DNA of 64,000 bases from Candidatus Forterrea multitransposorum CG_2015-17_Forterrea_25_41. GTDB lineage: Archaea; Iainarchaeota; Iainarchaeia; Iainarchaeales; CSSED10-239. A program made the position numbers and the translations under genes. The notes beneath the pieces are model-generated. The model made no database searches. It saw only the letters and a program-made list of their open reading frames with translations, and had not been told where the DNA came from. Below are positions 12,039 through 44,379 of this stretch, piece after piece (the first letter of the stretch is position 1; the number at the start of each line of letters is the position of its first letter). The stretch is from positions 160,001-224,000 of the forward strand of contig CP045477.1 in NCBI GenBank assembly GCA_009392915.1, in the 5' to 3' direction.

Positions 12039-12070
12039 CAACTGGTTATGCTCAGTTGACACGCAAAAAT
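12039..12070 (+). ncRNA. Conserved hairpin (CAACTG-gttatgct-CAGTTG) followed by ACACGCAAAAAT immediately 3' of tRNA-Gly. Member 1 of a three-copy motif family.
   Basis: A perfect 6-bp inverted repeat with an 8-nt loop, then the ACGCGCAA-like tail. The same architecture recurs at 44314-44342 and 44351-44379 with compensatory stem changes. Confidence 0.4.
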
Positions 12071-12132
12071 ATCCAAGCTTGCAGGCGTTGTTGTCATGCA
12101 AAACTTGCTAAGCTTTAAGGCGTTTTTTATAT

Positions 12133-12438
12133 ATGGTTAAAGATAAAAAAAAAGTTATTGAAAAAATAAATTTTTTAATCGATTTTGCAATTTCTCAAAA
12201 ACAAGAAAGTAATCCTTATATTTATGATTATATTAATATTTCTTTTAATTTAGCAAAAAAAATAAACTACAGGATGCCAAAAGAGATACATAGAAAAGTT
12301 TGCAAAAATTGTTTTTCTATAAGATCTTTAGAAAACACAAAGATTAGAACTTTAAGAGATAAGAAAAATGGTGTTATTGTAAAATCTATAAAGCTTCACT
12401 GTCTTTCCTGCAACCATATTAAAAAAATAAGAGTTTAA
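12133..12438 (+). CDS. rnp4: RNase P protein component Rpp21/Rpr2 (Rnp4), a zinc-ribbon protein
   Basis: Basic N-terminal helices (VKDKKKVIEKINFLIDFAI...AKKINYRMPKEIHRKVCKNC) and a C-terminal C-x2-C...C-x2-C ribbon (CKNC...CLSC). About 100 aa. Confidence 0.65.
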   Translation: MVKDKKKVIEKINFLIDFAISQKQESNPYIYDYINISFNLAKKINYRMPKEIHRKVCKNCFSIRSLENTKIRTLRDKKNGVIVKSIKLHCLSCNHIKKIRV

Positions 12439-12491
12439 TCTTCTTTATATGTTTAACACTCTTATATTTATTTTAAAATCTATTTTTTTAC

Positions 12492-12591
12492 AAAATCCTT
12501 ATATTTATAAATATTATGCCTAACATATAAGTATAATATATTTTAATAAATGATAGCTGATGTTTATAGATAGAATAAAAATTCAAAGAAA
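12492..12591 (+). promoter_or_regulatory. 100-nt promoter/leader block, copy A, identical to 15412-15511. It contains a TATA-like element (tttataaata) upstream of pilin-like gene A.
   Basis: Exact 100/100 identity with 15412-15511. The AT-rich TATA-like box lies about 30-40 nt upstream of the ORF. Confidence 0.6.
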
Positions 12592-14044
12592 GGTACAACC
12601 TTTTTTTGAAAAAAATGTTAACGAAAAAAGAAAAGCTATTAGTCCACTTATAGCAACCATTCTTTTAGTGGTTGTTGCCATAGCTATAATCGGTATTGTT
12701 CTTTCCTGGGGTAAAGGTTTTACAAACACAACTCTTTCTTCTGCAGATAATATTAATACCAAAAATTCTTTCACAGGTCTTGTTTGGTCTTTTGAAACTT
12801 TTGGAAATAATGTCTTGGTTGAAAATAAATCAAAACAAGATTTAAACATTACTGGTTATACTATTAACTCTCTTGATCATAATGGTTTTTGGATAAACTC
12901 ATATCATCCTTTAGAAACTACTTTATCAATTTCTCCTGGAACTTCAAACAATGTTCCTTTGATCTGTATGCCTGAGGGAAAATTTATTTTAACTCTAAAG
13001 ACATCCTCAAATGAAAATATACCTCTTAACATCTCTCCTTCGAAAACACTTTTAGGAGGAACTTGTGAAGAATATAATGTTTCTCTTTGGGAATTTGCAG
13101 CAGAAACTGGAAGTTATGAGATTAATGAGATTGCTTTAGAGCAGGGTAATAATTATAGTAATTATAATTTTTTATTTAGTTGGACTGAAGTAAGTGCTAC
13201 TATAAATGATTCTAATACATTTAGTTCAACAAGTGTTGGTGGAATCACTAAGCAAACTACATGGATGGAGGTAGGTAAGAGATATAAATTAAAAATTTCA
13301 GGGACAACAACCGCTTCAGGAATAGTTATATTTTCTGGAAACAACGGAACATATATAGGTTCTTTAACTACTGGCAATTTTAGTCAAACATTTAAAAAAA
13401 CAATACTTGCTGTAAATCCTGGTTTAGACTTATATATAAGGAATTCATCAGCAGGAGTTACAACAATTACTGAATTGTCAGTAATAGAAATTCCTCCCCT
13501 TCCTGATTTTAACACAGGCACAAAATATTTACAAAATACTACTTCAGGAACAACTGCTATTGAAAGTAAACAAGCTTATGGTGAATGGGAGTTTGATGTT
13601 TATAAAGGTAGTACATTAACCAATTCATTTGTAAAAATAATCTCAGATGCCATAATAGGCAGCGTAGGTGGAAATTCTTATACTATTCAATTTAATGTAG
13701 ATGAAGCATTAAAGTTATGGAGAGGTGGCACTGCCATTATGAGTACAGCAAATTCCTACATCTCCAAAAACACTTGGTACAGAATAAAAGTAGCAAGACT
13801 TCAAAGTTCTGGAACATTTGCAATTATAGTTCCTTCGATGACCACAACCTATCCAAAAGACACATTTGCAGTTTTCATAAAAGGTGGGGAGTTTGGAGAT
13901 GATTGGACTTTAGTAGATACAACAGGTGGAAGTGGAACAAACCCTGTCACAGACTCTACATACACTACAAGCAATTATTTTGTTGCAGACCTTGATGTTG
14001 GAGATAGAATAGCAAATATTAAAATGAAGGAGAGTGTTGACTAA
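12560..14044 (+). CDS. Type IV pilin-like (class III signal peptide, DUF361-like N-terminus) surface protein A with a large beta-rich extracellular domain. Mosaic paralog of 15480..17333.
   Basis: KRKA|ISPLIATILLVVVAIAIIGIVLSWGKGF matches the archaeal prepilin site [KR][GA]|, followed by a hydrophobic helix. It shares the N-terminal ~180 aa and C-terminal ~75 aa with paralog C. The annotated ATG may be upstream of the true start. Confidence 0.65.
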   Translation: MFIDRIKIQRKVQPFFEKNVNEKRKAISPLIATILLVVVAIAIIGIVLSWGKGFTNTTLSSADNINTKNSFTGLVWSFETFGNNVLVENKSKQDLNITGYTINSLDHNGFWINSYHPLETTLSISPGTSNNVPLICMPEGKFILTLKTSSNENIPLNISPSKTLLGGTCEEYNVSLWEFAAETGSYEINEIALEQGNNYSNYNFLFSWTEVSATINDSNTFSSTSVGGITKQTTWMEVGKRYKLKISGTTTASGIVIFSGNNGTYIGSLTTGNFSQTFKKTILAVNPGLDLYIRNSSAGVTTITELSVIEIPPLPDFNTGTKYLQNTTSGTTAIESKQAYGEWEFDVYKGSTLTNSFVKIISDAIIGSVGGNSYTIQFNVDEALKLWRGGTAIMSTANSYISKNTWYRIKVARLQSSGTFAIIVPSMTTTYPKDTFAVFIKGGEFGDDWTLVDTTGGSGTNPVTDSTYTTSNYFVADLDVGDRIANIKMKESVD

Positions 14045-14045
14045 A

Positions 14046-15383
14046 ATGTTTTCAAAAGTAAATAAAAAAGCTATTAGTCCACTTATAGCAACCATCCTTT
14101 TAGTGGTTGTTGCCGTAGCTATCATCGGTATTGTTCTTTCTTGGGGAAAAGGCTTTACAAACACAACTCTTTCAAAAGCTTCAAGTATTGAAGTTTATTC
14201 AGAATCAGAAATTGGTTTTTATTTAAATCTTCAAAACTCAATAAACGGAAGAACCACAGTTTCTTATAACCCTCCACAAAATACTACTTATAATAATCTA
14301 ACAATAGTTGGTTATGGCCTTTTAGGATATACAACAAACATAGTTCCTTTAGAACCTCCAATAACTATTTCAAAATCACAAACTGCAAATATTGATCATG
14401 GTATAATTTTACCTGAATTTGATTTAGTTTTATATTTAGATAACAATACTATGATAACTAAATTTAATTTAAAACAAGAAATTAAACAACCTTCTTCTTG
14501 TCCTGAAGGTTTTATTCCAGTTCCTGGAAATCATTTATATGGAACCATGAATGAAAGAGGTGGTTTTTGTGTAATGAAATATCATGCAAAAAATGACACT
14601 GGCTCAAAAATAAATTCAACTTGTATAACAGGTCTAGAAGGTTCTGATAGTAATCTAACAGTTAAATCAGTTCCAGAAATTGCTCCTTCAGTAAATATAA
14701 ATTATTGTGCTGCAAAAAAATCTTGTGAAAATTCAGGATATATTTTAATGAATAATTCTCATTGGATGACTATTGCAAGAAATATTGAACTAAATGAATT
14801 AAATTATGTTTCTGGAAATCTAGGTGAAGGCTTTATTTTTAGAGGGCATTATAATAATAATCCATCTTTAATTATTGAAGCAAATTCAGATGATTCAAAT
14901 AATTTTTATTTAATAAACAGTCCAAACTCAGATCAAAGAAGAACTTTATATTTATCTAATGGAGAAATAATTTGGGATTTTACTGGAAATGCATGGAATA
15001 TATTAGAAGATTTAGTTTTAATAAAGGATCATGCAGATGGTTTTTATACTTCTGATGATACTGAGTTTAATTCTGGTAATGATAATTTATTTCTAACGGA
15101 TTATTATAAAGGTAGTAATAATTATTATTTAAAATTTAATCAATTAGGTAATACTATTTTTAATTATAAAGATATTTATTTATTAAATTCAAAATACAAT
15201 GCTGTAAATAATGGTATTGGTATTTACCATGGAAATAGTAATAGAGGAAGTGTTTCTGAAACTATTACTTTTATGATGAGAGGTGGAGATAAACAAAATG
15301 GTCAATATTCTGGTTTAATGGAATTAACATTCCCTAATTTAAGTTCTAATGGAAATACAGTTGGATTTAGATGTGTGAAATAA
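14046..15383 (+). CDS. Type IV pilin-like signal peptide fused to an FGE-sulfatase (SUMF1/C-type-lectin-like fold) family domain
   Basis: MFSKVNKKA|ISPLIATILLVVVAVAIIGIVLSWGKGFTNTTL has the same mature N-terminus as the neighbours. Ordered FGE-sulfatase hallmarks: HWMTIARN, GEIIWDFTGNAWNILED (like GN.WEW), MMRGGDKQNG (like RGGSW) and terminal GFRCVK. The track start at 14034 is GTG. The ATG at 14046 is more likely. Confidence 0.55.
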   Translation: MFSKVNKKAISPLIATILLVVVAVAIIGIVLSWGKGFTNTTLSKASSIEVYSESEIGFYLNLQNSINGRTTVSYNPPQNTTYNNLTIVGYGLLGYTTNIVPLEPPITISKSQTANIDHGIILPEFDLVLYLDNNTMITKFNLKQEIKQPSSCPEGFIPVPGNHLYGTMNERGGFCVMKYHAKNDTGSKINSTCITGLEGSDSNLTVKSVPEIAPSVNINYCAAKKSCENSGYILMNNSHWMTIARNIELNELNYVSGNLGEGFIFRGHYNNNPSLIIEANSDDSNNFYLINSPNSDQRRTLYLSNGEIIWDFTGNAWNILEDLVLIKDHADGFYTSDDTEFNSGNDNLFLTDYYKGSNNYYLKFNQLGNTIFNYKDIYLLNSKYNAVNNGIGIYHGNSNRGSVSETITFMMRGGDKQNGQYSGLMELTFPNLSSNGNTVGFRCVK

Positions 15384-15411
15384 ATATATCTCTTTTTTTA
15401 AAAAATTATTA

Positions 15412-15511
15412 AAAATCCTTATATTTATAAATATTATGCCTAACATATAAGTATAATATATTTTAATAAATGATAGCTGATGTTTATAGATAGAATAAAA
15501 ATTCAAAGAAA
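15412..15511 (+). promoter_or_regulatory. 100-nt promoter/leader block, copy B, identical to 12492-12591
   Basis: Exact duplicate of copy A, sitting upstream of pilin-like gene C. Confidence 0.6.
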
Positions 15512-17333
15512 AGAAAAAACTTTTTTTGAAAAAAATGTTGACAAAAAAAGAAAAGCTATTAGTCCACTTATAGCAACCATCCTTCTTGTAGTTGTTGCTG
15601 TTGCCATCATCGGTATTGTTCTTTCTTGGGGAAAAGGTTTTACAAACACAACTCTTTCTTCTGCAGATAATGTTAATACCAAAAATTCTTTCACAGGTCT
15701 TATTTGGTCTTTTGAAACTTTTGGAAATAATGTTTTAGTTGAGAATAAATCAAAACAAGATTTAAATATTACTGGTTATACTATTAATTCTCTTGATCAT
15801 AATGGTTTTTGGATAAACTCTTATCATCCTTTAGAAACCACTCTTTCAATATCTCCTGGAACTTCAGATAATGTGTCTTTGATTTGTATGCCAGAGGGTA
15901 AATTTATTTTAACTTTAAAAACCTCAACAAATGAAAACATACCTCTTAACATCTCTCCTTCAAAAACAAGTAGAGGTTCTACTTGTGAGGAGTATAATGT
16001 TTCTCTTTGGGAGTTTGTAGCAGAAACTGGAAGTTATTCTATTAATACTTTTACAATGCAGGAAGGAGAACTTGTAACTAACGGTGGGTTTGAGACTGAT
16101 TTATCTGGTTGGTTAAGAACAAGTCATATTATTCAAAATAATGATGTTGCAGATGTTAATCTTATTGGCTCTGATTATATTTTAGAACAACAAAATGTTG
16201 TAGAAATGGGTAAAAGTTACTTAGTTACTTTTGAAATTAAAAACTATTATTCAGGTGCAGTTTATTTTTATAATGTTAATTTGCCAGGGGTAGGTAGTGG
16301 TTATACTGCAACTTCAAATGGGGTTTATGCACTAACATTTACATCTAGTGGAAATAACATCTTATTTCGAACTGTAACTAATTTTGTAGGATCTATTGAT
16401 AATATCTCAATAGTAGAAATCCCTCCTCTTGAAACAATAACCACAGGCACAAAATACTTAGAGAACACAACAGCAGGAACAACTGCTATTGAAAATAAAC
16501 AAGCTTATGGTACTTGGGAATTTGATGTTTATAAAGAAAATGCAAATTATCATTATACATATTTTATAAATTCTACCACAAATACAATGGATAATAGTTA
16601 TAGAATTACTTTAAAAAATTTTAATGCTTTAGATTTAAGAAAACAAGGTGATTCAACTTTAACATTATTATTAACTTCTGATAATTATATTCAAGATAAT
16701 ACTTGGTATAGAATAAAAGTTGCAAGACTTCAAAGCGAAGGTGTGTTTAACGACATACCTACTTTGCAGACTAGTGATATGGTGAATAGTGCAACACAAC
16801 CTTACCAATCATTTACAAGTAAGGGGAGATATGGATTCAGTGCTATTGCAAATGGAACTACAATTACTCATGCTAATACAGCAGATGAAATAGACCTTGT
16901 AAATACAGGAAAATACCTTGTAGAATTTGATTTAAAATTAAACAGCGGGATAGCCCCAGATGTAGCATTAGCAGCAAGTGTAACAAGTGGGTTGTATTCT
17001 AATTCAGTTCAATCTATTGTAGGGAGAAATAGTTTTATACTTACTGCAAGTAATTCAATTACAGGGATATTAAGGTTTTATAACAGTTCTACTGAGTCTG
17101 CAGACTACGAAGTTTCAAACTTAACAATCAGAAGAATCTACCCAAAAGACACATTTGCAGTATTTATTAAAGGTGGAGAGTTTGGAGATGATTGGACTTT
17201 AGTAGATACAACAGGTGGAAGTGGAACAAACCCTGTCACAGACTCTACATATACAACAAGCAATTACTTTGTAGCTGACCTTGATGCTGGAGATAGAATA
17301 GCTAATGTTAAAATAAAACCAAATATTGAATAA
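15480..17333 (+). CDS. Type IV pilin-like surface protein C with a CBM4_9-like carbohydrate-binding module. Mosaic paralog of A.
   Basis: Same signal and helix (KRKA|ISPLIATILLVVVAVAIIG). NGGFETDLSGWLRTSHI is the CBM_4_9 signature. Shared blocks with A include IEIPPLxxxTGTKYLxNTTxGTTAIExKQAYGxWEFDVYK, NTWYRIKVARLQS.G and the C-terminal YPKDTFAVFIKGGEFGDDWTLVDTTGGSGTNPVTDSTYTTSNYFVADLD.GDRIAN. Confidence 0.65.
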   Translation: MFIDRIKIQRKEKTFFEKNVDKKRKAISPLIATILLVVVAVAIIGIVLSWGKGFTNTTLSSADNVNTKNSFTGLIWSFETFGNNVLVENKSKQDLNITGYTINSLDHNGFWINSYHPLETTLSISPGTSDNVSLICMPEGKFILTLKTSTNENIPLNISPSKTSRGSTCEEYNVSLWEFVAETGSYSINTFTMQEGELVTNGGFETDLSGWLRTSHIIQNNDVADVNLIGSDYILEQQNVVEMGKSYLVTFEIKNYYSGAVYFYNVNLPGVGSGYTATSNGVYALTFTSSGNNILFRTVTNFVGSIDNISIVEIPPLETITTGTKYLENTTAGTTAIENKQAYGTWEFDVYKENANYHYTYFINSTTNTMDNSYRITLKNFNALDLRKQGDSTLTLLLTSDNYIQDNTWYRIKVARLQSEGVFNDIPTLQTSDMVNSATQPYQSFTSKGRYGFSAIANGTTITHANTADEIDLVNTGKYLVEFDLKLNSGIAPDVALAASVTSGLYSNSVQSIVGRNSFILTASNSITGILRFYNSSTESADYEVSNLTIRRIYPKDTFAVFIKGGEFGDDWTLVDTTGGSGTNPVTDSTYTTSNYFVADLDAGDRIANVKIKPNIE

Positions 17334-17543
17334 AAACCAAATATTTAGTAACTTTTAATTTTTTTAAACTATTTTTAACCATAAAGAAACATATTTAAAT
17401 AGAACTCTACCTATATTATATATTATTAGACTTTTTTATATTAGTTGTTTAAACAATAACTTTTTAAAAAAAAAGAATCTATAAAGATGAGAATATATTC
17501 TTATATAAAAGATATATTTGATATAAACATGAGGTGAGAACTC

Positions 17544-18047
17544 TTGACAAGTGTTAAAGATGTAAATCCACACGCCCTTATCAATATGGTCGCAAAGGAC
17601 CTTAAAGAAACAAAGGGTGTCAAGATGCCAGAGTTTGCCGCATTTGTAAAAACCGGCTCTCATAGAGAAAGAACCCCAGATAATCCAGACTGGTGGTTTG
17701 TAAGAATGGCATCTATTTTAAGAAAAGTATACATTTCTGGAAGCGTTGACGTAAATTCTTTAAGGAATTATTATGGTGGACGTAAGAATAGAGGTGTTAG
17801 ACCAGAGATTTTTAGAAAAGCTGGTGGAAAAATAATTAGAGTTTGTCTACAAGATTTAGAAAAATTAGGTTTTGTTAAAATTTCAGATAATAAGACTGGA
17901 AGAATTTTAACATCTAAAGGACAAAAATATCTTGATTTAATGGCAAGTAATTTATCTAAAGTTTCTCCTAAAGAAATCAAAAAAGAACCTCTTGAAAAGA
18001 AAATTAAACAAGAAAAGCCAAAAGTAGAGGTTGAAGAAAAACAATAA
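17544..18047 (+). CDS. rps19e: Ribosomal protein S19e
   Basis: VKDVNPHALINMVAKDLKE...PEFAAFVKTGSHRERTPDNPDWWFVRMASILRKVY...GGRKNRGVRP matches the S19e family. Confidence 0.9.
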   Translation: MTSVKDVNPHALINMVAKDLKETKGVKMPEFAAFVKTGSHRERTPDNPDWWFVRMASILRKVYISGSVDVNSLRNYYGGRKNRGVRPEIFRKAGGKIIRVCLQDLEKLGFVKISDNKTGRILTSKGQKYLDLMASNLSKVSPKEIKKEPLEKKIKQEKPKVEVEEKQ

Positions 18048-18071
18048 AATGTTTTTAGGAGTTGAATATTT

Positions 18072-18392
18072 ATGGCAAGAAATAAAGATAAAGAATTTAA
18101 AGAGTTTTTAATAGCTCAAAGGAAAAAAGTTGGTCCAGGTTATATGAATACTCCTGTTTGGATTATTCAAAAAGCAGGAAAAAGAATCTGGAATAGAAGA
18201 CAAAAAAGAAATTGGAAAGAAACCGAATTTGGTGCCCAATATAAACAATTAAAAGAAGATCAAGAAAAAGCTAAAGCAAAAACTTATTTTAAGAGTGGAA
18301 AAAGAGTAAAATCTTCTAAGTCTTCTACAAGAAAGGTAAGAAATAGGAATACTACTATTGTACCTAAAAAAATAAAAGGTAAAAAAAGGTGA
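18072..18392 (+). CDS. rpl39e: Ribosomal protein L39e with a roughly 55-aa Lys-rich C-terminal extension
   Basis: MARNKDKEFKEFLIAQRKKVGPGYMNTPVWIIQKAGKRIWNRRQKRNWKETEFG aligns to archaeal L39e (MARNKPLAKK..LAKA.KQNRRVPVWV.VKT.R.V..NPKRR.WRR.KL). The tail is unusual. Confidence 0.75.
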   Translation: MARNKDKEFKEFLIAQRKKVGPGYMNTPVWIIQKAGKRIWNRRQKRNWKETEFGAQYKQLKEDQEKAKAKTYFKSGKRVKSSKSSTRKVRNRNTTIVPKKIKGKKR

Positions 18393-18399
18393 ATAGATT

Positions 18400-18897: not shown

Positions 18898-18901
18898 TTT
18901 T

Positions 18902-19579: not shown

Positions 19580-19593
19580 AGGAGTGAAATAAA

Positions 19594-20055: not shown

Positions 20056-20098
20056 ATTTTCTTTTATCTTTTTTTAATTAATAGAGGTTTTTTAAAAT

Positions 20099-21391: not shown

Positions 21392-21394
21392 ATT

Positions 21395-21685: not shown

Positions 21686-21701
21686 TTTTAATCAACCTCT
21701 T

Positions 21702-22088: not shown

Positions 22089-22208
22089 AAATAATTAACT
22101 AATTAACTATTGTTTATAAATATATTACTTTTAAATCAATTTATATTTATATCTTTTGATATATTATATATAATATACACTTAAAAAACCACACAAATGT
22201 TTTAAAAT

Positions 22209-23612: not shown

Positions 23613-23619
23613 AAAGGAT

Positions 23620-24483: not shown

Positions 24484-24505
24484 GGAATAATTAAAAAAAG
24501 GTTAC

Positions 24506-31564: not shown

Positions 31565-31578
31565 TTTTAATCTTTCCT

Positions 31579-32142: not shown

Positions 32143-32154
32143 ATTTTAAAACCT

Positions 32155-35993: not shown

Positions 35994-36005
35994 ATTTTAA
36001 AACCT

Positions 36006-38414
36006 TTATTCTATATTTAAATTTAAATTTTCAGTAATAGTTTGTTCTTGATCTGTCACTGATAATGTTATTGTGTGTTCTCCAACAGACAATGTTGAAA
36101 TATTAATATCACAATTATCTAAAGAATATTGATTATTATATAGTTTTGAAACATCTTCTTGATCTATTGCTTCATCAAAAATTAAAATATCATCCATTTT
36201 ACCATTAAAAAAATGATCATAAGTTCCAACAACTCCATTATAAGCTATAGCAGCACCAATTGCAACTGGCAAGCTATTTGATATTGATCCATAAGTTCCA
36301 ATAGGAACACTAGCATCAAGAATTCCATTAATATAAAAATTTAAATCTTGGTTGTCTTTATAAGACATAATAACATTATACCAATTATTTTGAGCATATA
36401 GAGAACCACAATTACTACAACTTTTATAGTTACTTTGAGCATCATCAATACCAGAATAAATATCCCAATTACTAGAAACATTATTAATCATTAATTGCCA
36501 ACCTGCATAACTTCCTCCGGCACCTCTTCCTCTAGTATTAATTATTCTTTGATATCCAGAACCAGTAGGATTTATCCATGTTGATACAGTAATTTCATCT
36601 AAATTTGAACTAATATTATTATCTAAAGTTGCATAGCTTGAAGTTCCATTAAAACTTAATGCATTATTTTCTCTTCCAAATCTGTCTGTTGTTCTAGTTA
36701 CATTAAATAAAGTTCCGTCAATATTCCCTATATTATCATAAATAGTATCTCCTGTAGTTTCTTCAAATCTATATTCTGCATATGGTTTTTGATATGTTAA
36801 ATTTCCATCAATTGATGATGCCCAAGAACAAGAATAATTTCCTACATTATTTGTAATATTTGTATCTATTTCTATATTATCTCCTAAAGTATATACATTT
36901 GAATCAATATTTATTTCTGCATTTAAAGATGGATTTTCTACAGTTATATTTTTTGTTTCAGTAATAGTTTGTTCTTGATCGGTCACTGATAAAGTTATGG
37001 TGTGTTCTCCAACAGACAATGTTGAAATATTAATATCACAATTATTTGAAGAATATTGATTATTATATAGTTTTGAAACATCAGAACTAGAAATTCCATT
37101 ATTAAAAATAATAATATCATCTAACTTTCCATTAAAAAAATGATTAAAAGTTCCATACACTCCATTATATGCAACTGATGTCCCAATTGCTGTTGGTAAG
37201 CTGTTTGTTATATTTCCATATGGATCTAAATTTACACTTTCATCTAATTGTCCATCAACATAAAAATTAAGATTATTATCTTCATCAAAAGACATAACAA
37301 AATGATACCATTTTCCAAGTGTCAAACTATTTCCACAAGTGTTACAACCAGTAAATGGACTTGTTGAAGAATCAACTCCTGAATAAAGATAAAAATTACT
37401 AGTTGTATCATTAATTAATATTTGCCATCCTTCAACATCTGAAGCTGCAGATCCTCTTGTGTTTATAATTCTCTGATATGTACTAGATCCATTTGATAAA
37501 AACCATCCTGATATTGCAAATCTATTAAGTTCTTGACTTATATTATTATCTAATAAAACATAGCTTGAAGTTCCATTAAAGCTTAAAGCCTTATTTTCTC
37601 TTCCAAATCTATCTGTAGTTCTTGTAATGTTATATCCATTACCATCAATATTACCTATTAAATCATAAATTATATTTCCTGAAGTTTCATTAAAATCCCA
37701 TCTTGCATAAGGTGTTTTACTTGGTATTAAGTTTCCATCAATTGATGATGCCCAAGAACAAGAATAACTTCCAACAGGGTTATTTACTTCTGATGTGAAA
37801 TTAATTGGTTCTGAAAATAAGAAAGAAGTTGCTTCTATTGGATTTGAAATATCTATAGTTGTCACAGTTTCTATTGGATTTAGATTTGGTCTTTCTTTTT
37901 GAAGATTTAATTTTTCAGAAGAATCAATTTCTCTTAAAAAACTTATTTTGTTTCTACTTATTTTTTTAATATAAATAATTGTTTTTGTGTTATTAAGATA
38001 TATTCCTTGTTCTATATCTATTCCATTGATGTCTAAACCAACAATTAATTTTTCAAATTCTCTAAAAGTATAAATTTCTCCTTCTCTAATTAATTGTCCT
38101 TCTTTATAATAATTTCCAGAAATATTATGAAATATTTCTATTTTATCTAAATTAGAATCTGCTTCAAAACTTAAACCATCAAGGTCTATTACAAAAGAGA
38201 CAACAGATCCATTTGAATTTTCTAAAACTTCTTGTATTTTTCCTTGAATTTCTTCAATATACATTCTAGATTCTTCAAATTTTTGTTGTGAATTATTTCT
38301 TTCAATTGCAGGAACAACTCCTTGATAAATAAGTCCTACAACAGCAACAATAATAAATATAACTAAGATATAACTTAAAATTTCAGAAGCTCCTCTCTGA
38401 TTTAGTCTTTTCAT
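36006..38414 (-). CDS. Giant pilin-signal adhesin (802 aa) with a class III signal peptide and two tandem [PKD-like + LamG/ConA-like lectin] units
   Basis: Signal MKRLNQRG|ASEILSYILVIFIIVAVVGLIY. Two copies of ...SYSCSWASSIDGNL...YARWDF.ETSG..IYD.IGNIDG.....TRTTDRFGREN.ALSFNGTSSY (LamG_3 signature). Each ends with the PKD-like GEHTITLSVTDQEQTIT. Confidence 0.7.
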   Translation of the reverse strand: MKRLNQRGASEILSYILVIFIIVAVVGLIYQGVVPAIERNNSQQKFEESRMYIEEIQGKIQEVLENSNGSVVSFVIDLDGLSFEADSNLDKIEIFHNISGNYYKEGQLIREGEIYTFREFEKLIVGLDINGIDIEQGIYLNNTKTIIYIKKISRNKISFLREIDSSEKLNLQKERPNLNPIETVTTIDISNPIEATSFLFSEPINFTSEVNNPVGSYSCSWASSIDGNLIPSKTPYARWDFNETSGNIIYDLIGNIDGNGYNITRTTDRFGRENKALSFNGTSSYVLLDNNISQELNRFAISGWFLSNGSSTYQRIINTRGSAASDVEGWQILINDTTSNFYLYSGVDSSTSPFTGCNTCGNSLTLGKWYHFVMSFDEDNNLNFYVDGQLDESVNLDPYGNITNSLPTAIGTSVAYNGVYGTFNHFFNGKLDDIIIFNNGISSSDVSKLYNNQYSSNNCDINISTLSVGEHTITLSVTDQEQTITETKNITVENPSLNAEINIDSNVYTLGDNIEIDTNITNNVGNYSCSWASSIDGNLTYQKPYAEYRFEETTGDTIYDNIGNIDGTLFNVTRTTDRFGRENNALSFNGTSSYATLDNNISSNLDEITVSTWINPTGSGYQRIINTRGRGAGGSYAGWQLMINNVSSNWDIYSGIDDAQSNYKSCSNCGSLYAQNNWYNVIMSYKDNQDLNFYINGILDASVPIGTYGSISNSLPVAIGAAIAYNGVVGTYDHFFNGKMDDILIFDEAIDQEDVSKLYNNQYSLDNCDINISTLSVGEHTITLSVTDQEQTITENLNLNIE

Positions 38415-38513
38415 AATTATTCTTTATTTTTAAATATATTTTACTAATATATTATATATGAAATCTTTATAAACATATTTAATCTATATTATATATACAA
38501 TACAAAATATTGT

Positions 38514-38586
38514 GGTCCGAATAGTGTAGTGGTTAGCATATGGGTCTGTGGATCCCATGACTCGGGTTCGAATCCCGGTTCGGACC
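38514..38586 (+). tRNA. tRNA-His (anticodon GTG)
   Basis: Anticodon arm TGGGT-CTGTGGA-TCCCA gives GTG. T-arm TCGGG-TTCGAAT-CCCGG. Acceptor GGTCCGA/TCGGACC. The exact 5' end and the acceptor/T-stem junction are ambiguous by 1 nt. A genomically encoded G-1 is possible. Confidence 0.7.
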
Positions 38587-38739
38587 CTCTTTATTCTTTT
38601 AAATTGTTTTAAAAATTATTTTTTCTATTTTTTTAAAAATATTTTTATATGTTTTGCCATTCATTTGTTTTTTTAAAAAAACAATCTATTTTTAAATCAT
38701 ATGATTTACTATATTTTTAAAATATAAAGGTGATATATA

Positions 38740-40188
38740 ATGCACGAAGATCTTTTTAACACCCTAAACCCACATCAAAAAGCATATATTAATTTTGAAA
38801 TTCCAAATGTTAAAAATGGAGAATATATGTTATGTGCTTTCCATTTAAGACCTGGAGGAGATTTAAATATCTTACAAGCAGCTTGTGAAACAGCAGCTGA
38901 ATCTTCAACTGGTACAAATTTTTTAGTAAACACAGAAACTCCTTTTGCAAGAGAGATGAATGCTTTAGTTTATAAATTAGATTTAGAAAAAAGTTTAGTA
39001 TGGATAGCATATCCTTGGAGACTTTTTGATAGAGGAGGAAATGTTCAAAATATCTTAACATACATTGTAGGAAATGTTTTAGGTATGAAAGAAGTTTCTG
39101 CAATTAAACTTTTAGATGTTTGGTTTCCACCAGCTATGCTTGAACAATACGATGGACCTTCCTATACTTTAGATGATATGAGAAAATATTTAGATGTTTA
39201 TGATAGACCAATTTTAGGAACAATTATAAAACCAAAAATGGGTTTAACTTCAGCAGAATATGCAGAAGCATGCTATGATTTCTGGGTTGGTGGAGGAGAT
39301 TTTGTTAAAAATGATGAACCTCAAGCAAACCAAGATTTCTGTCCATATGATAAAATGGTAAAACATGTAAAAGAAGCTATGGATAAAGCTGTAAAAGAAA
39401 CTGGTCATAAAAAAGTACATTCTTTCAATGTTTCAGCTGCAGATTATGATACAATGATTGAAAGATGTGAAATGATTGTTAATGCAGGTTTTGAAAAAGG
39501 ATCTTATGCATTTTTAATAGATGGAACTACTGCAGGTTGGATGGCAGTTCAAACTTTAAGACGTAAATATCCTGATGTTTTCCTTCATTTCCATAGAGCA
39601 GGACATGGAGCATATACAAGACCTGAAAATCCAATTGGTTTTTCTGTTTTAGTATTATCTAAATTTGCAAGACTTGCAGGAGCTTCTGGTATTCATACAG
39701 GAACTGCAGGTGTAGGAAAAATGGCAGGTACTCCAACAGAAGATATTACAGCTGCAACTGGTATTTTAAAATTAGTCTCAGAAGGACATATTTTCCATCA
39801 ATCATGGTCAACTGTTCCTGAAAAAGATTTAGATGTTGTAAAGCTTGCACAAGAGGATGAAGCTCATCATGTTATCTTAGAAGATGATAGTTGGAGAGGT
39901 CTTAAAAAATGTACTCCAATAATCTCTGGTGGTCTAAATCCAACTCTTCTTAAACCATTTATTGATTTAATGGGTGGAGTTGATTTTATAACAACTATGG
40001 GTGCTGGTTGTCATGCTCATCCAAAAGGTACACAAGCAGGCGCTAAGGCTTTAGTTCAAGCATGTGAAGCATACCAGAAAGGAATTTCTATTGAAGAATA
40101 TTCAAAAGATAGACCTGAGCTTGCAGAAGCTATTGAGTTTTTTACAAAGAAAAAGCATGTTGATAACTTAAAGAAGGAGTTTTCTTAA
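38740..40188 (+). CDS. rbcL: Ribulose-1,5-bisphosphate carboxylase, form III (archaeal nucleotide-salvage type), large subunit
   Basis: YINFEIPNVKNGEYMLCAFHLRPGGD...TGTNF, the catalytic Lys region GGGDFVKNDEPQANQ, and the loop-6 and C-terminal GGLNPTL..GGVDFITTMGAGCHAHPKG. Confidence 0.9.
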   Translation: MHEDLFNTLNPHQKAYINFEIPNVKNGEYMLCAFHLRPGGDLNILQAACETAAESSTGTNFLVNTETPFAREMNALVYKLDLEKSLVWIAYPWRLFDRGGNVQNILTYIVGNVLGMKEVSAIKLLDVWFPPAMLEQYDGPSYTLDDMRKYLDVYDRPILGTIIKPKMGLTSAEYAEACYDFWVGGGDFVKNDEPQANQDFCPYDKMVKHVKEAMDKAVKETGHKKVHSFNVSAADYDTMIERCEMIVNAGFEKGSYAFLIDGTTAGWMAVQTLRRKYPDVFLHFHRAGHGAYTRPENPIGFSVLVLSKFARLAGASGIHTGTAGVGKMAGTPTEDITAATGILKLVSEGHIFHQSWSTVPEKDLDVVKLAQEDEAHHVILEDDSWRGLKKCTPIISGGLNPTLLKPFIDLMGGVDFITTMGAGCHAHPKGTQAGAKALVQACEAYQKGISIEEYSKDRPELAEAIEFFTKKKHVDNLKKEFS

Positions 40189-40247
40189 ATTAATTTTTTT
40201 AAGAAAATCTTTTTCTTTTTTTCTTTGTTTTTTGGACAAGAGGTTTT

Positions 40248-40844
40248 GTGTTTATGCAGATAGATAAAAGTAAAATTTATTTTGAAACAGATCGTTTAAT
40301 AATAAGATTATTAAAGCCATCTGATGCTTCTGATATTTTTGAAAATTATAAGGATAAAGTATATTCTAAAAATATACCTAATCTTCCTTATCCTTATACT
40401 TTAAAACATGCAAATGATTTTATTAAAAAAAATAAATCTAAAATTAATAGAAAAAAAGATCCTGGAATTGAGTTTGCAATTTTTTCAAAAGAAGAAAATC
40501 GAGTTATTGGTGGTGCTTCTTTAAACCATATTGATTTTAAAAATAAAAAATGTGAAAGCGCTTCTTGTCTTTCAAAAAAATATTGGGGTAAAAAATATAT
40601 TTATGAAGCAAAGCTTGAAATCTATAAATATGCTTTCAATATTTTAAAATTAAATAAAATTTATGCTGATGTTTTTACTTATAATTTAAGAAGTAAAAAG
40701 CATTTAGAAAAGTTAGGTTTTAAGGAAGTCGGGCTTAAAAGAAAAGATATCTTCCATAAAAATAAGTTTATAGATCTTTACAGGCTTGATCTTTTAAAAG
40801 AGGAATTTAAGTATAAAGATTTAAAGAAAAATCTTCTTTCTTAA
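40248..40844 (+). CDS. GNAT-family N-acetyltransferase (RimJ/RimL-like)
   Basis: ETDRLIIRLLKPSDASDIFENY is the typical RimL N-terminus. The acetyl-CoA motif region is ASCLSKKYWGKKY. Confidence 0.65.
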   Translation: MFMQIDKSKIYFETDRLIIRLLKPSDASDIFENYKDKVYSKNIPNLPYPYTLKHANDFIKKNKSKINRKKDPGIEFAIFSKEENRVIGGASLNHIDFKNKKCESASCLSKKYWGKKYIYEAKLEIYKYAFNILKLNKIYADVFTYNLRSKKHLEKLGFKEVGLKRKDIFHKNKFIDLYRLDLLKEEFKYKDLKKNLLS

Positions 40845-40967
40845 TTTTTTTTTAATTTTTTAGAAAAATTTAAAAACTTTTCTAGAAAATATTTTTATTT
40901 TTTTTGTTACATTATATATTTATTAACAAAAACTATTTTTAAAAAAACAAAAAAAGGTGGTGTAACT

Positions 40968-41447
40968 ATGAAAAAATATACTATCTGGGATGAAATGAGA
41001 AGAATGCAAAGAGAGATGGATTCTTTATTTGATGACTTTGTTTATTCTCAAAAACCATATCTTCTTTCAGGTTCTAAAAAAGATGAAAATTCTTTAACTT
41101 CTTTAGAAAACTATAGAGAACCAGTTTGTGATGTTAAAGAAGATAATGATAAATATAATCTTTCTTTAGAAATTCCTGGTTCAAAAAAAGAAGATATTAA
41201 AATAAATGTAAATGATAACAACTTAGAAATAAAGGTTGAACATAAAAGTGAAGAAAAAAAAGAGGATAAAGAAAAAGGTTACTATAGCTATTCAAAAAGT
41301 TATTCTGGCTTTTATAGATCCTTCTCTCTTCCAAGAAATATAGATAAGGATAACATAGATGCAGAGTACAAGGATGGTGTCTTACATCTTAAACTTCCAA
41401 AAAAAGAAATATCTTCTTCTTTAAACAAGTTAATAGAGGTTAAATAA
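40968..41447 (+). CDS. hsp20: Small heat-shock protein (Hsp20/alpha-crystallin family)
   Basis: DVKEDNDKYNLSLEIPGSKKEDIKINVNDNNLEIKVEH...FYRSFSLPRNIDKDNIDAEYKDGVLHLKLPK is the alpha-crystallin domain. Confidence 0.85.
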   Translation: MKKYTIWDEMRRMQREMDSLFDDFVYSQKPYLLSGSKKDENSLTSLENYREPVCDVKEDNDKYNLSLEIPGSKKEDIKINVNDNNLEIKVEHKSEEKKEDKEKGYYSYSKSYSGFYRSFSLPRNIDKDNIDAEYKDGVLHLKLPKKEISSSLNKLIEVK

Positions 41448-41462
41448 TTTTTTTAACCTCTT

Positions 41463-42002
41463 TTATTCTTTAAGTAAATAATAAATATCTTTATCTAAGA
41501 TTAAGTTATTTACTTTTCCTAATTTTTCTTTTTTAATAATACCATTTTCTTCAAGTTTTAAAATTAGTCTATGAACTTTAATCTTTGATAACCCATCAAT
41601 ATATGTAAGTTCATATTGCCTTACTTTTCCATCATTTTCTAATATCTTTTCAATAATCTTTTTTTCATCTTTAGTTAAAAGATTAAGTATGGTTTTACTC
41701 TTAACATTAATATTTTTTTCTTTTTGATTAATTTCTTCAGATAAAAGATAGTAGATAAGTAACCCTACAAACATTCCAAAGAATGCACTAATAGGTATTA
41801 GATAAAAAGAATAATTTGATTTTTCTGGTTTATTTAACATCTGTTCTTTAAGTTCATCTATAGTATAAAGATCTATTGTTGTAATATCAATAGTATTCTG
41901 ACTTCTATTTATCTTTTGTTGTGCAGATAAAAATAAAAGAGTTGAAACTATTAATAATATAAAAGATAATAAGACAGCTAAGATAATTATTTTTTTGTTC
42001 AT
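41463..42002 (-). CDS. Membrane-anchored putative winged-helix DNA-binding protein
   Basis: Two TM helices, then LTKDEKKIIEKILENDGKVRQYELTYIDGLSKIKVHRLILKLEENGIIKKEK, which is MarR/TrmB-like wHTH. Confidence 0.4.
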   Translation of the reverse strand: MNKKIIILAVLLSFILLIVSTLLFLSAQQKINRSQNTIDITTIDLYTIDELKEQMLNKPEKSNYSFYLIPISAFFGMFVGLLIYYLLSEEINQKEKNINVKSKTILNLLTKDEKKIIEKILENDGKVRQYELTYIDGLSKIKVHRLILKLEENGIIKKEKLGKVNNLILDKDIYYLLKE

Positions 42003-42178
42003 AATAGATATATTGTTCTTTTCTGTTTTTATTCTTTATTGTTTATATATAGTTTCAGTTAATCAAACCATAGTTTCATAAAAGAGTATATATCGTTACA
42101 CTTATAATTATCTAGTACTTTAAAGGGTTTTTTTAAAAGTTTGTTAAAAACTTTTTAAAGTAAAATTAAAAAAAAAAG

Positions 42179-42613
42179 GTGAAAAAAAATATGAATAATA
42201 AAACAAAAATAATTGCCTCTATCCTTACATTGTTTAGTTTTCTTTTAGTTTTAGGAACAGTAAGTGCATACAGAGGAGATGTAACAAAGCTAGGTCCAAA
42301 CTACGATCCTGTAGTACATGCAAATATGCAATTTGCAATTGAAGCTGGAGATTATCAAGCTTGGAATGATATTGTTTCTTTAAGAGATAATAATTCAAAG
42401 ATAACTACATATATAACAGAAGAAAACTTTGAAGAATACAGTAAAGCATACCTTTCTGCTTTATCAGGAGATTCATCTTCTTTACAAGAGTTTAGAGCTT
42501 CTTTAGGTTTAGGCCAAGGTAATCAATATAGAGGATCTAATAAAGGTTCTTTAAATGAAAACTCTAATTCTTTAGGTCAAAAGAAAATGAATAGATACAA
42601 CTCTACAAATTAG
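42179..42613 (+). CDS. Small secreted hypothetical protein
   Basis: Signal peptide MKKNMNNKTKIIASILTLFSFLLVLGTVSA. Confidence 0.35.
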   Translation: MKKNMNNKTKIIASILTLFSFLLVLGTVSAYRGDVTKLGPNYDPVVHANMQFAIEAGDYQAWNDIVSLRDNNSKITTYITEENFEEYSKAYLSALSGDSSSLQEFRASLGLGQGNQYRGSNKGSLNENSNSLGQKKMNRYNSTN

Positions 42614-42765
42614 TTTTTTTTAATAGGTTATAAAAATTAATTAAGATTATTTATTTAATCTTTTTTTCTTTTATAAGTTCTTTTTTTAAATGTATTTATG
42701 CTTAATTATATTATTAGTTTATAATTCTATTTTTCTTTTAAGAAGAATATTTTATATGAATTTTT

Positions 42766-42837
42766 GCTTCTGTGGCTCAGTGGTAGAGCGCAACCTTGGT
42801 AAGGTTGAGGTCGCGGGTTCGACTCCCGCCAGAAGCT
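42766..42837 (+). tRNA. tRNA-Thr (anticodon GGT)
   Basis: Acceptor GCTTCTG/CAGAAGC, D-arm GCTC-AGTGGTA-GAGC, anticodon arm CAACC-TTGGTAA-GGTTG, T-arm GCGGG-TTCGACT-CCCGC. Confidence 0.85.
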
Positions 42838-42995
42838 TGATGCACAAAAATAACTAATTTGTGCATTTGAAATATACTTTTTAATCTTTAATTATACCAA
42901 ATTATATGCATTTATAAATAGATTATAACGGACTTATAATCTTTTAGTAAAAGACTATATTTAAAAACATTTCTGTTATATATTATATTAGTGAT

Positions 42996-44267
42996 TTGTA
43001 TATGGATAAAGATTTTTTAAGAAATGTTATTACTGATCAATATGAAGATCTAAAAGATGTTTCTAAAACGGTTTTAAGATATGATTTAAAAGAAATAACA
43101 TCTTTTGTAGAAAATCCTGCAATTTCAATAATTTCAGGAATTAGAAGATGTGGAAAATCAACTTTTTTAGAACAAATAATTAACCTACATTATAAAGATG
43201 ATTTTTATTATTTTGATTTTTCAGATGAAAGAATTTCAAGATTTCAAACAGAAGATTTTCAAAAACTATATGAAGTATTTTTAGAAAAATTTGGAAAAAG
43301 AAAAGCATTTTTCTTTGATGAGATACAAGAAGTTCCAGATTGGAATAAATTCGTAAATAGAATGAATAAAATAGGCTATAAATGTTTTGTTACTGGTTCA
43401 AACTCAAATTTATTAAGCAAAGAATTATCCACATACCTTACAGGAAGACATATAGATAAAGTTTTATTTCCATTTTCTTTTAAAGAATATTTAGTATATA
43501 AAAATATAAATATTGACTTAGATTCTACAAAATCAAAAACCTTAATTATTAAAGAATTTAAAAATTATTTTAAATTAGGGGGTTTTCCAGAAGTTGTTTT
43601 AACAAATGACACTTCAATTTTATTAAATATTTATTCAGATATTATTTCAAAAGACATTATTGAAAGATTTAAAATAAATGATATTTCTCTATTTAAAGAA
43701 TTTTGTAATTATGTTATATCTTTATCTACAAATGAATTTACTTATAAATCATTAAAAGATAATTTTAAAATTCAAAATATAACTACTGTTTCAAATTATC
43801 TTGATTATTTAAAACTTACATATCTTGTTTATGAAGTTAAAAGATTTTCTCCTGCTTTACAGAAATTAAATAAATTTCCAAAAAAATATTATTGTATTGA
43901 TAATGGGTTATTAAATAAAGTTGGTTTTGGATATTCAATAGAAGAGAGTAGATTTTTAGAAAATCAAGTTTTTATTGAACTTTGGAGAAACAATTTAAAT
44001 TCTGAAATTTATTATTATAGAAATAAAGATAATAAAGAATGTGATTTTTTAGTATTAAATAACAGAAAAGTTGCTAAAGCTATTCAAGTTTGTTATGCTT
44101 TTAAAAAAGCAGAAACAAGAAATAGAGAAATTGAAGGTTTATTATCTGCTTTAAAAGAATTTAATTTGTCTTTTGGAGAAATTATAACCTTTGAACATAA
44201 AGAAAGATTAGAAATTGAGGGTAAAATTATAGAAATGATTCCTATCTATGAGTGGTTATTAAAATAA
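42996..44267 (+). CDS. AAA-family ATPase with a DUF4143-type C-terminal domain, common in archaeal mobile or defence contexts
   Basis: Walker A GIRRCGKSTF and Walker B FFFDEIQ. The C-terminal DUF4143-like region includes KECDFLVLNN. Confidence 0.65.
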   Translation: MYMDKDFLRNVITDQYEDLKDVSKTVLRYDLKEITSFVENPAISIISGIRRCGKSTFLEQIINLHYKDDFYYFDFSDERISRFQTEDFQKLYEVFLEKFGKRKAFFFDEIQEVPDWNKFVNRMNKIGYKCFVTGSNSNLLSKELSTYLTGRHIDKVLFPFSFKEYLVYKNINIDLDSTKSKTLIIKEFKNYFKLGGFPEVVLTNDTSILLNIYSDIISKDIIERFKINDISLFKEFCNYVISLSTNEFTYKSLKDNFKIQNITTVSNYLDYLKLTYLVYEVKRFSPALQKLNKFPKKYYCIDNGLLNKVGFGYSIEESRFLENQVFIELWRNNLNSEIYYYRNKDNKECDFLVLNNRKVAKAIQVCYAFKKAETRNREIEGLLSALKEFNLSFGEIITFEHKERLEIEGKIIEMIPIYEWLLK

Positions 44268-44289
44268 AAAATGAGCGCTTTTAACCTAA

Positions 44290-44312
44290 GGTTTAGTTCC
44301 TGCCAGAAGCTT
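44290..44312 (+). repeat. Partial direct copy of the 3' end of tRNA-Thr (ggtttagttcctGCCAGAAGCTT, with the last 11 nt exact). Candidate attR of an integrated element whose attL is tRNA-Thr at 42766-42837.
   Basis: Fifteen of the last 15 nt of tRNA-Thr (tcccGCCAGAAGCTt) are matched 14/15, and the T-arm remnant ggtt..tcc is matched partially. It lies 1.45 kb downstream of the intact gene and brackets the DUF4143 ATPase. Confidence 0.55.
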
Positions 44313-44313
44313 T

Positions 44314-44342
44314 GAACCGGTTTCGCTCGGTTCACGCGCAAT
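44314..44342 (+). ncRNA. Hairpin motif copy 2, GAACCG-gtttcgct-CGGTTC followed by ACGCGCAAT
   Basis: Same architecture as 12039-12070, with fully compensatory stem changes (CAACTG/CAGTTG versus GAACCG/CGGTTC). Confidence 0.4.
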
Positions 44343-44350
44343 CTTTAAAA

Positions 44351-44379
44351 GAGCTGGTTTCGATCAGTTAACACGCAAT
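44351..44379 (+). ncRNA. Hairpin motif copy 3 (degenerate), GAGCTG-gtttcgat-CAGTTA followed by ACACGCAATGG
   Basis: The loop GTTTCGAT and the tail ACACGCAA are conserved. The stem is partly degraded. Confidence 0.3.

Follow-up and report, generated by a model that had tools for sequence, protein, structure and literature searches.

A tRNA-associated family of 28-nucleotide hairpin modules in DPANN-type archaea, probably an intron-like insertion element, with three copies in Candidatus Forterrea multitransposorum

Introduction

How archaeal tRNA introns spread to new genes and new positions is an open question. The transposed bulge-helix-bulge (BHB) tRNA introns of the Thermoproteales (Fujishima et al. 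2010), as presented in passages of a review (PMC4090602), encode no gene and depend on the BHB motif for their removal; the same passages describe the mechanism of their spread as unknown. In Caldiarchaeum subterraneum (Sugahara et al. 2012, PMC3293823) a tRNA-Thr(GGU) gene is disrupted by a 1.8-kb insert that encodes a recombinase, and that study links the gain of introns to mobile DNA. Here we describe a 28-nt hairpin with a conserved tail (the 28-mer) that occurs three times in a 64,000-nt stretch of Candidatus Forterrea multitransposorum (contig CP045477.1, positions 160,001 to 224,000 of the forward strand; hereafter the window): once after a complete tRNA-Gly gene, and twice after the remnant of a tRNA-Thr gene. 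Further copies, collected from metagenomes and genomes, make it a family of 28-nt structured modules in DPANN-type archaea that is apparently undescribed so far. We read this family as a non-autonomous mobile or selfish, intron-like insertion element, by whatever mechanism it moves, and give this reading a probability of roughly 0.7.

Results and Discussion

The 28-mer and its three copies in the window

All three window copies share one 28-nt layout, in which a stem of 6 bp carries a loop of 8 nt (GTTWYGMT) and is followed by a tail (ACRCGCAA). C1 (12039-12066, + strand; stem CAACTG/CAGTTG, loop GTTATGCT, tail ACACGCAA) is separated by a single T from tRNA-Gly(GCC), that is, it begins 2 nt past the tRNA end. 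C2 (44314-44341, + strand; stem GAACCG/CGGTTC, loop GTTTCGCT, tail ACGCGCAA) begins two bases past the discriminator position of the tRNA-Thr remnant. C3 (44351-44378, + strand; stem GAGCTG/CAGTTA, loop GTTTCGAT, tail ACACGCAA) has an imperfect stem with one G.A mismatch and one G.U pair. An earlier reading of this DNA from its letters (the sequence-only reading) had placed three hairpins at these sites, and inspection of the window together with a pattern search finds them there, all on the + strand. Its conserved loop stands as described, while the tail it gave is found in the exact form ACGCGCAA once only, the shared form being ACRCGCAA; and C3, which it put 35 nt beyond C2, lies after a 9-nt spacer, the starts of the two copies being 37 nt apart.

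The degenerate pattern CYGGTTWYGMTCRGNNNACRCGCAA, covering loop, inner stem and tail, has three matches in the window against none in 100 dinucleotide-preserving shuffles. A covariance model (R1), built from 30 distinct copies, retrieves exactly C1, C2 and C3 from the window (49, 43.7 and 39 bits, respectively; E = 8e-12 for C1 and up to 5e-9 for the others) with the next-best match at E = 5.6; two of the 30 sequences are identical to C1 and C2, so that these scores are partly circular.

Size, spread and sequence of the family

Loci outside the window are designated by L numbers (e.g. L180, L229). Public metagenome contigs were scanned with the pattern CTGGTTNNGMTCAG-N3-4-ACRCGCAA, which leaves the outer three stem pairs free. 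The scan returned 83 matches in 77 stretches, amounting to about 70 distinct copies in 69 distinct contexts, on contigs that range from 22 to 57% GC and carry archaeal features such as a 16S rRNA (L159), a split RNA polymerase A'/A'' (L185), SecY (L219) and a secretion-type ATPase (L202). A scan of a genome collection with spacing longer by 1 nt (CRG+NNNN) gave, among the matches listed, mostly chance bacterial ones, together with a Nanohaloarchaeal variant that has one bulged base in the 3' strand and occurs in two copies in each of two metagenome-assembled genomes (MAGs) (L101, L133, L136, L153). With R1, 95 matches are found in 483 kb of archaeal loci.

The consensus of the family is CAACTGGTTACGCTCAGTTGACACGCAA. 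Loop and tail, most of which the search pattern fixed, are almost invariant across copies, and the tail ACRCGCAA is present in all of them. The three outer pairs are fully Watson-Crick in 55 of 63 distinct contexts, compared with a mean of 23 and a maximum of 34 in shuffles, and they come in five types (CAA/TTG, CGA/TCG, TAA/TTA, CGG/CCG and GTG/CAC). Across 30 distinct sequences 97.8% of the stem cells are paired and four of the six pairs show double changes, a result reached by none of 500 shuffles; when the stem alignment is slid to other registers, pairing falls to 44% or less. The hairpin is therefore under selection for pairing. Compensatory change in the stems, which the sequence-only reading had taken as a sign of selection on structure, holds for the family as a whole in both datasets (63 contexts, 30 sequences), and the wider scan extends covariation and tRNA association alike beyond the window to the metagenome copies.

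Several matches were set aside: six high-GC metagenome matches as chance or coding sequence (L165, L166, L176, L179, L189, L194), two in bacterial MAGs that have 6/6 complementarity and coding-looking flanks (L095, L126), and a conserved high-GC phage coding sequence, matched by the first viral scan, that forms no hairpin. Among 2.9 million viral contigs scanned there was no match to the 28-mer. In Rfam 15, tRNA and rRNA models alone match at gathering thresholds, and a search at E <= 10 around three of the elements gave nothing relevant. A literature search for the 28-mer sequence gave no match, and searches by topic returned general literature on intron transposition alone.

About 16 of the ~70 copies are found close to a contig end, at a distance of up to about 150 nt (L158, L172, L183, L188, L190-L193, L198, L200, L206, L207, L209, L215, L219, L220), which suggests that the repeat breaks short-read assemblies.

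Where the copies sit

The family has a strong link with tRNA genes: half or more of the 69 distinct contexts are tRNA-associated, ARAGORN by itself flagging 20. Its intron search places copies in anticodon-loop introns of tRNA-Gly(TCC), Arg(GCG), Ser(CGA), Lys(CTT), Ala(TGC) and Trp(CCA) (L133, L136, L171, L208, L213, L230), and other ARAGORN calls put copies directly 3' of tRNA-Gly, Leu and Arg. Flanks read by eye add T-loop introns (L199, L229, L215, L206), two loci in which the T loop GGTTCAAAA is followed by the element (L160, L209), and a D-loop intron (L215). The trailer copies, found with five tRNA families, begin 0-3 nt past the tRNA 3' end. Copies thus sit mostly in those parts of tRNA precursors that are discarded: D-, anticodon- and T-loop introns, 3' trailers and 5' leaders. 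Among the other settings are the regions upstream of tRNAs or open reading frames (ORFs), the 5' ends of ORFs, and the interior of a small RNA (sRNA) of C/D-box-like type. Orientation follows transcription: 22 copies lie on the same strand as an ARAGORN tRNA within 200 nt and one (a doubtful call) on the opposite strand, and of the flanking ORF pairs, 22 run wholly in the direction of the copy and four wholly against it.

Neighbouring copies are separated by 0, 9, 63 or 117 nt, or by kilobases. In L185 (481-564) three head-to-tail 28-mers without any spacer take up the whole interval between the A' and A'' genes of RNA polymerase, in L188 the tandem units measure 30 nt, and multi-module arrays with nested copies of the 5' half were also seen. 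Most members carry a second hairpin of variable sequence, usually 1-8 nt past the tail. A recurrent second domain has the form GNGSGRC-AUU-(variable hairpin)-AA/UCA-GYCCCNC, in which the fourth pair is often a C.C mismatch (e.g. L164, L171, L215, L220, L163). There is also a third module, GCUC-(short covarying hairpin)-UCGCAA, that echoes the 3' part of the 28-mer.

The C/D-box-like sRNA that hosts a 28-mer and second hairpin was recognised by eye in L170 (750-900), L178 and L153 (- strand, 640-770), and hence in two distant lineages; it comprises a terminal stem, a GGAUGAUGA or GGAUGACGA box, a guide of 11 nt common to these loci (ACCCUGCGGGA) and a box that reads CUGA or CCGA. In its default mode ARAGORN reports no tRNA in L101, L133, L136 and L153, nor in L095 and L126, and with the intron option it finds intron-containing tRNAs in the first three; the tRNAs that host the family are likely under-annotated.

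Intron copies and predicted splicing geometry

The centroid structure computed by RNAfold for the pre-tRNA-Val of L229 comprises a cloverleaf with its T stem and a 4-bp helix (UUCG/CGAA) that joins T-loop bases to the 3' end of the intron, then a 3-nt bulge plus a 4-nt bulge with 1 nt opposite, and then a 7-bp helix (ACUGGUU/AACCAGU). The first strand of the latter consists of the hairpin's 5' arm in the 28-mer together with two loop bases; the second lies near the end of the intron. Splicing at 59/60 would restore the canonical T loop UUCGAAU. A distal complement to the 5' arm is likewise present in L199, L215, L170, L171 and L153, and the two covary: in L215, UAACUGGUU pairs with AACCAGUUA. 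There are thus two strands to which the 5' arm is complementary, the local 3' strand and the distal arm next to the splice sites. In the anticodon-loop copies L136, L133 and L208, 4-base complements to positions 32-35 were found by eye just before the 3' splice site. By this folding model, intron copies are predicted to have a spliceable geometry in at least one case (L229). The window copies interrupt no gene and so are not introns: C1 follows a complete tRNA-Gly, and the other two follow the tRNA-Thr remnant.

Gain, loss and footprints of insertion

Orthologous intervals running from a transglutaminase gene through tRNA-Gly to Rpp21 were obtained from relatives through their Rpp21 homologues. 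The tRNA-Gly itself is almost invariant among them; its trailer varies. The window and L168 have the 28-mer together with the second hairpin, and a 28-mer occupies the same site in L169. So it does in L233 (Rpp21 75% identical), with a compensated TAA/TTA stem in place of the CAA/TTG of the window. L232 (Rpp21 78% identical), L235 and L234 have a plain T-rich trailer with neither the 28-mer nor the second hairpin, and L231 (Rpp21 81% identical) has the second hairpin alone: at 1400-1480 of that locus the hairpin (CCAAGCTTGCAGGCGTTGTTG.CATGCAA...) is kept and the 28-mer is replaced by CTTAAGCTTTTAG. This half-insert indicates that the two halves of the trailer insert can be lost separately. At the tRNA-Thr site, L211 has kept C3 and is missing C2.

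Many copies are flanked by direct repeats of their target, 11 to about 50 nt long, the left repeat ending 0-12 nt before the 28-mer. Repeated tRNA sequences include positions 1-17 (L157), the leader plus positions 1-17 (L195, 48 nt) and the last 21 nt (L101); repeated coding sequences include the first 10-13 codons of methyltransferase, pilin-like and Cys-tRNA-synthetase-like ORFs (L226, L155, L222, L196) and, in antisense, the last 33 nt plus the stop codon of secY (L219). Of the two repeat copies, the intact one leads on into the gene, and its counterpart is truncated: right-hand copies keep ORFs of 157 aa, 328 aa and SecY, and left-hand ones stop after 10-43 aa. The right-hand copy thus keeps the host gene intact. 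In about eight tRNA or ORF cases the repeat begins near the transcription start, judged by eye from the position of the TATA box; that repeats always start there is contradicted by L219, at the 3' end of secY, and by L195. The insert in L155 holds a tRNA 5' fragment foreign to that locus, so an earlier flank must have travelled with the element.

The genes around the copies, by a Pfam census of 150 ORFs within 2.5 kb, are housekeeping genes, and the 25 commonest families include no integrase, transposase, reverse transcriptase or Cas family. No autonomous partner with a transposase was seen in the 483 kb of loci around copies. Inverted copies occur 2.4 kb apart in the pair L201/L206, one of them in a T-loop intron of a Leu-type tRNA; the ORFs between them were not recognised as mobility genes, no family search having been run on them.

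Local context of the tRNA-Gly copy

The window has a GC content of about 25% and is archaeal: it encodes the RNase P protein Rpp21/Rpr2, and the matching contig adds the ribosomal proteins S19e and L31e, as well as aIF6 and prefoldin. Its six tRNA genes (ARAGORN, Rfam) all lack an encoded CCA. The host gene of C1, tRNA-Gly(GCC) (11966-12037, + strand; Rfam tRNA model 61.1 bits; also called by ARAGORN), is complete. Past C1 the trailer forms a second hairpin (AAGCTTGCAGG...CTTGCTAAGCTT; 12075-12115, + strand), the RNAfold energy of 12038-12132 being -26.1 kcal/mol (z = -2.2), and then reaches a run of six T at 12123-12128, 57 nt past the tail of C1, which is likely the transcription stop. Four other window tRNAs (Val, His, Leu and Glu) have plain T-rich trailers with no copy of the 28-mer.

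Between Rpp21 and S19e the window has three ORFs of 494, 449 and 617 aa without a Pfam match (12560-17333). In L231-L235 S19e directly follows Rpp21, and this stretch is therefore a lineage-specific insertion of ~5 kb. A repeated stretch, near 12836 and 15756 on the - strand, is common to two of the three ORFs.

The tRNA-Thr locus

The intact tRNA-Thr(GGT) (42766-42837, + strand), whose trailer also bears a hairpin (42839-42870), forms the left boundary of an inserted cassette of ~1.5 kb (42838-44312). Its single gene (42996-44267, + strand) encodes an AAA_14/DUF4143 ATPase (Pfam AAA_14 8.8e-36, DUF4143 2.4e-22) and is followed by the decayed 3' remnant (GAGCGC...TTCCTGCCAGAAGCTT; 44273-44312, + strand), a direct repeat of the 3' part of tRNA-Thr that resembles an attachment (att) site. 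The sequence-only reading was right to see a tRNA-Thr 3' fragment here: the remnant and the intact gene have in common GAGCGC and the 11-nt 3' end GCCAGAAGCTT, repeated at 44302-44312.

ATPase paralogues (45-84% identical) in L180, L174 and L167 each end with a tRNA-Thr-like repeat. L180 (3000-12354) holds an array of five such paralogues and two HicB/HicA pairs, and its units each end in a ~40-nt tRNA-Thr-like repeat (GAGCGCTTTTCACTTTAGATTCAACTCCCGCCAGAAGCTT). To judge by its sequence, this array carries what appears to be the signature of repeated integration into tRNA-Thr; it looks like serial, integron-like integration of cassettes, and no integrase is seen there. Of the eight tRNA-Thr-like repeats in L180 only one has the 28-mer behind it, and once the 28-mer lies inside a repeat; it is thus a passenger of its own and does not belong to the integration site. 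Orthologues of C3 are present in both L211 and L180. C2 and C3 sit at the original trailer of tRNA-Thr, displaced when the ATPase cassette integrated, and the ATPase gene is context and does not belong to the hairpin module. The three window copies are ordinary passengers of the element family that mark an old tRNA-Thr integration site.

A possible mechanism and what weighs against it

If the family is a mobile intron-like element, its members would be non-coding units of about 55-110 nt, with the 28-nt hairpin and tail as the 5' core and a variable second hairpin usually next to it, and the hairpin would serve as the recognition structure for whatever factor processes or propagates it. Within introns, the 5' arm (NAACUGGUU) would switch partner to AACCAGUUN near the 3' end of the element, building a helix at the splice sites (BHB or a relaxed form of it); the host splicing endonuclease would then remove the element, and the tRNA would survive. 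In an RNA stage, the excised element RNA might be joined to or inserted into other RNAs at their processing sites, and the product might be copied back into DNA and recombined into the genome. We favour an RNA stage because the junctions coincide with RNA landmarks: 0-3 nt past the discriminator, mature position +1 or the predicted transcription start, and the three tRNA loops, with copies on the sense strand only. Taken in full, with the RNA stage included, we put this account at somewhat less than even odds. A more specific version has, in our view, the odds against it: the 28-mers would be RNA-propagated mobile archaeal introns, excised as possibly circular RNA, rejoined with or placed into further RNAs at their loops and processed ends, guided by short pairing that forms a BHB in advance, and copied to DNA, and a conserved protein, perhaps a ligase cofactor or a reverse transcriptase, would use the hairpin shared across phyla as its handle.

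Several points weigh against the mobile intron-like element. No reverse transcriptase, transposase or other partner was found near the copies, and direct repeats of variable length are unusual for known prokaryotic elements. Selection for intact genes could give the same pattern of junctions. The repeat in L219, from the 3' end of secY and antisense, does not fit a rule by which repeats run from the transcription start. For one case the BHB comes from computation and for the others from a hand drawing, and the one computed (L229) has a bulge of 4 nt with 1 nt opposite. Near-invariance of loop and tail across lineages whose GC runs from 22 to 57% is what one would sooner expect of a functional RNA to which a conserved host protein binds than of a selfish repeat, and part of it was built in by a scan pattern that fixed the inner stem, most of the loop and the tail. 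Finally, copy number appears to be low in some genomes, the 332-kb contig of L169 having one exact match.

Alternative explanations

The same mobile element may instead move as DNA, its folded 28-mer being recognised by a hairpin-specific enzyme (a single-strand transposase, IS200/IS605-like or of the type pairing repetitive extragenic palindromic (REP) sequences with their associated tyrosine transposases (REP/RAYT-like), or another recombinase). Intron-type copies would then resemble MITEs (transposable elements of the miniature inverted-repeat kind) with 9-nt inverted arms, kept in tRNAs only where they can be spliced. The inverted terminal arms of such copies (CAACTGGTT...AACCAGTTG) agree with this, as do the tandem units and a strand asymmetry like that of single-strand transposons; nested 5' half copies (TAATTGGTTACGCT|CGACTGGTTACGCT|...) suggest breaking and joining at the junction of loop and 3' strand, and the review PMC4090602 supposes gain of archaeal tRNA introns at the DNA level. 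The flanking direct repeats resemble target-site duplications, but at 11 to about 50 nt they have no fixed length, and many copies, those of the window included, lack the distal arm. Junctions at RNA processing landmarks (tRNA 3' end plus 0-3 nt, +1, loops) and an orientation that follows the tRNA strand 22:1 and the ORF strand 22:4 weigh against a DNA route; nor was a transposase found in the 25 commonest neighbour families, an autonomous copy seen, or a match obtained in the 2.9 million viral contigs. We regard the DNA route as a serious rival, with the odds against it. Still less probable, in our estimate, is a module that benefits its host, namely a conserved protein-binding or processing hairpin, or a small RNA, that resides in tRNA introns and flanks the way C/D-box sRNAs do, is set free by the splicing endonuclease, tRNase Z or RNase P and can drift in genomic position. 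Such an RNA would explain why loop and tail are almost invariant across distant lineages while the stem changes in a compensatory way, also at the orthologous tRNA-Gly site (CAA/TTG in the window, TAA/TTA in L233), why copies are found on the sense strand of precursor segments that get cut out, and why a second structural domain recurs after the tail; one of the hosts, moreover, is an RNA of C/D-box-like appearance (L170, L178 and L153, by eye). It sits badly with empty orthologous sites in close relatives, with selfish-looking insertions in the first 10-13 codons of ORFs that are rescued by target duplication, and with the triple tandem at rpoA'/rpoA'', the nested partial copies, decayed copies such as C3 and the foreign tRNA fragment that was carried along; no variable guide-like segment is evident, and no Rfam family matches.

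The sequence-only reading had offered two explanations of its own, neither of which the wider comparison supports. One was an arm-type or flank site of a tRNA-targeting integrase, left beside att sites. C2 and C3 do adjoin a genuine att-like remnant that closes the ATPase cassette, the arrangement is seen again in L180, L174 and L167, where ATPase identity is only 45-84%, and in L101 the unit has a copy of the tRNA 3' end on either side. Yet the 28-mer lies outside the duplicated tRNA-Thr segment, follows one repeat in eight in L180 and in one instance is found inside a repeat; most copies are in introns, leaders and ORF starts with no cassette nearby, the window cassette and the commonest families near copies include no integrase, and covariation of the stem is not expected of a protein-binding site in duplex DNA, all of which makes this explanation very improbable. 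The other, a dedicated signal for processing or termination in tRNA trailers, finds no support: most copies lie in introns, upstream regions, ORF 5' ends, the C/D-like sRNA and the rpoA'/rpoA'' gap, four of the six window tRNAs have no copy, no T-run follows the hairpin, and relatives with 78-81% identical Rpp21 have a plain or half-filled tRNA-Gly trailer. Chance similarity or an ordinary intrinsic terminator might be suspected in an AT-rich window, where tRNA trailers often carry hairpins (that of tRNA-Thr at 42839-42870, for example); with three matches against none in 100 shuffles, about 70 independent copies elsewhere, outer stem pairs that covary and the nearest T6 lying 57 nt past the C1 tail, not directly after the hairpin, we give it hardly any credence. 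A coding peptide was discarded on an in-frame stop in C1, read by eye, in the frame it shares with C2, and a repeat of a CRISPR array (clustered regularly interspaced short palindromic repeats) on the spacing. The K-turn, H/ACA, hammerhead, pistol and integron attC motifs do not fit the conserved positions of the 28-mer, and the Rfam scans were negative.

Significance and comparison with known systems

The 28-mer family offers a searchable core (R1) and many independent insertions at three tRNA loops and at both tRNA ends. Its filled and empty sites and its footprints (repeats, carried flanks, tandems) make the spread of introns testable by genome comparison and RNA sequencing. For annotation it matters that tRNA finders miss many of the host genes, and that truncated 5' copies of ORFs could be mis-called. 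Should the RNA-propagated reading be true, it would supply the first concrete mechanism and footprint for the spread of BHB introns, and the first family of retro-elements in DPANN archaea that resembles short interspersed nuclear elements (SINEs).

Of described repeats, hairpin-type CRISPR repeats (28-29 nt with an 8-nt 3' handle) are similar in their 28-nt unit, in the hairpin with exactly eight conserved nucleotides and in head-to-tail abutment; unlike them, the 28-mers have no regular 30-40-nt spacers and form no arrays of that kind, and no cas gene is among the 25 commonest neighbour families. By analogy, they recall the C/D-box sRNAs that are hosted in archaeal tRNA introns or transcribed together with tRNAs, and that enzymes of tRNA processing set free, as small structured RNAs in tRNA-Trp and other introns and flanks, but they have neither C (RUGAUGA) and D (CUGA) boxes nor a guide-like segment, and in L170 and L153 the 28-mer is an insert within such an RNA. 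With MITEs and with REP/PATE repeats, which IS200/IS605 or RAYT enzymes mobilise, they share a short, non-coding, multi-copy, intergenic hairpin, covariation of the stem and, in some copies, inverted arms; the 9-nt arms belong to intron-type copies and are absent from the window copies and from most repeat-flanked ones. They differ from these repeats in that the length of their flanking repeats varies, from 11 to about 50 nt, and no partner transposase was found at the loci, and also in following the transcribed strand, in being conserved far beyond one species and in acting, by the fold predicted here, as spliceable introns.

The Caldiarchaeum case is comparable in that a tRNA fragment stands beside a complete tRNA copy with DNA inserted between them, and in its target, tRNA-Thr. 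The inserts of the 28-mer family differ from it in being 55-110 nt long and encoding no gene, and the tRNA-Thr insert of the window in that it measures 1.5 kb, carries the ATPase only and is independent of the 28-mer. The transposed BHB introns of the Thermoproteales have in common with the present family the D-loop, anticodon-loop and T-loop positions of its members. The 28-mers, in contrast, belong to DPANN lineages, Nanohaloarchaea included, and their 28-nt core is conserved across phyla; many of them, with all three window copies, lie outside mature tRNAs, in trailers, leaders, ORF 5' ends, an sRNA and intergenic regions, and the family is further set apart by its long direct repeats and its tandem units.

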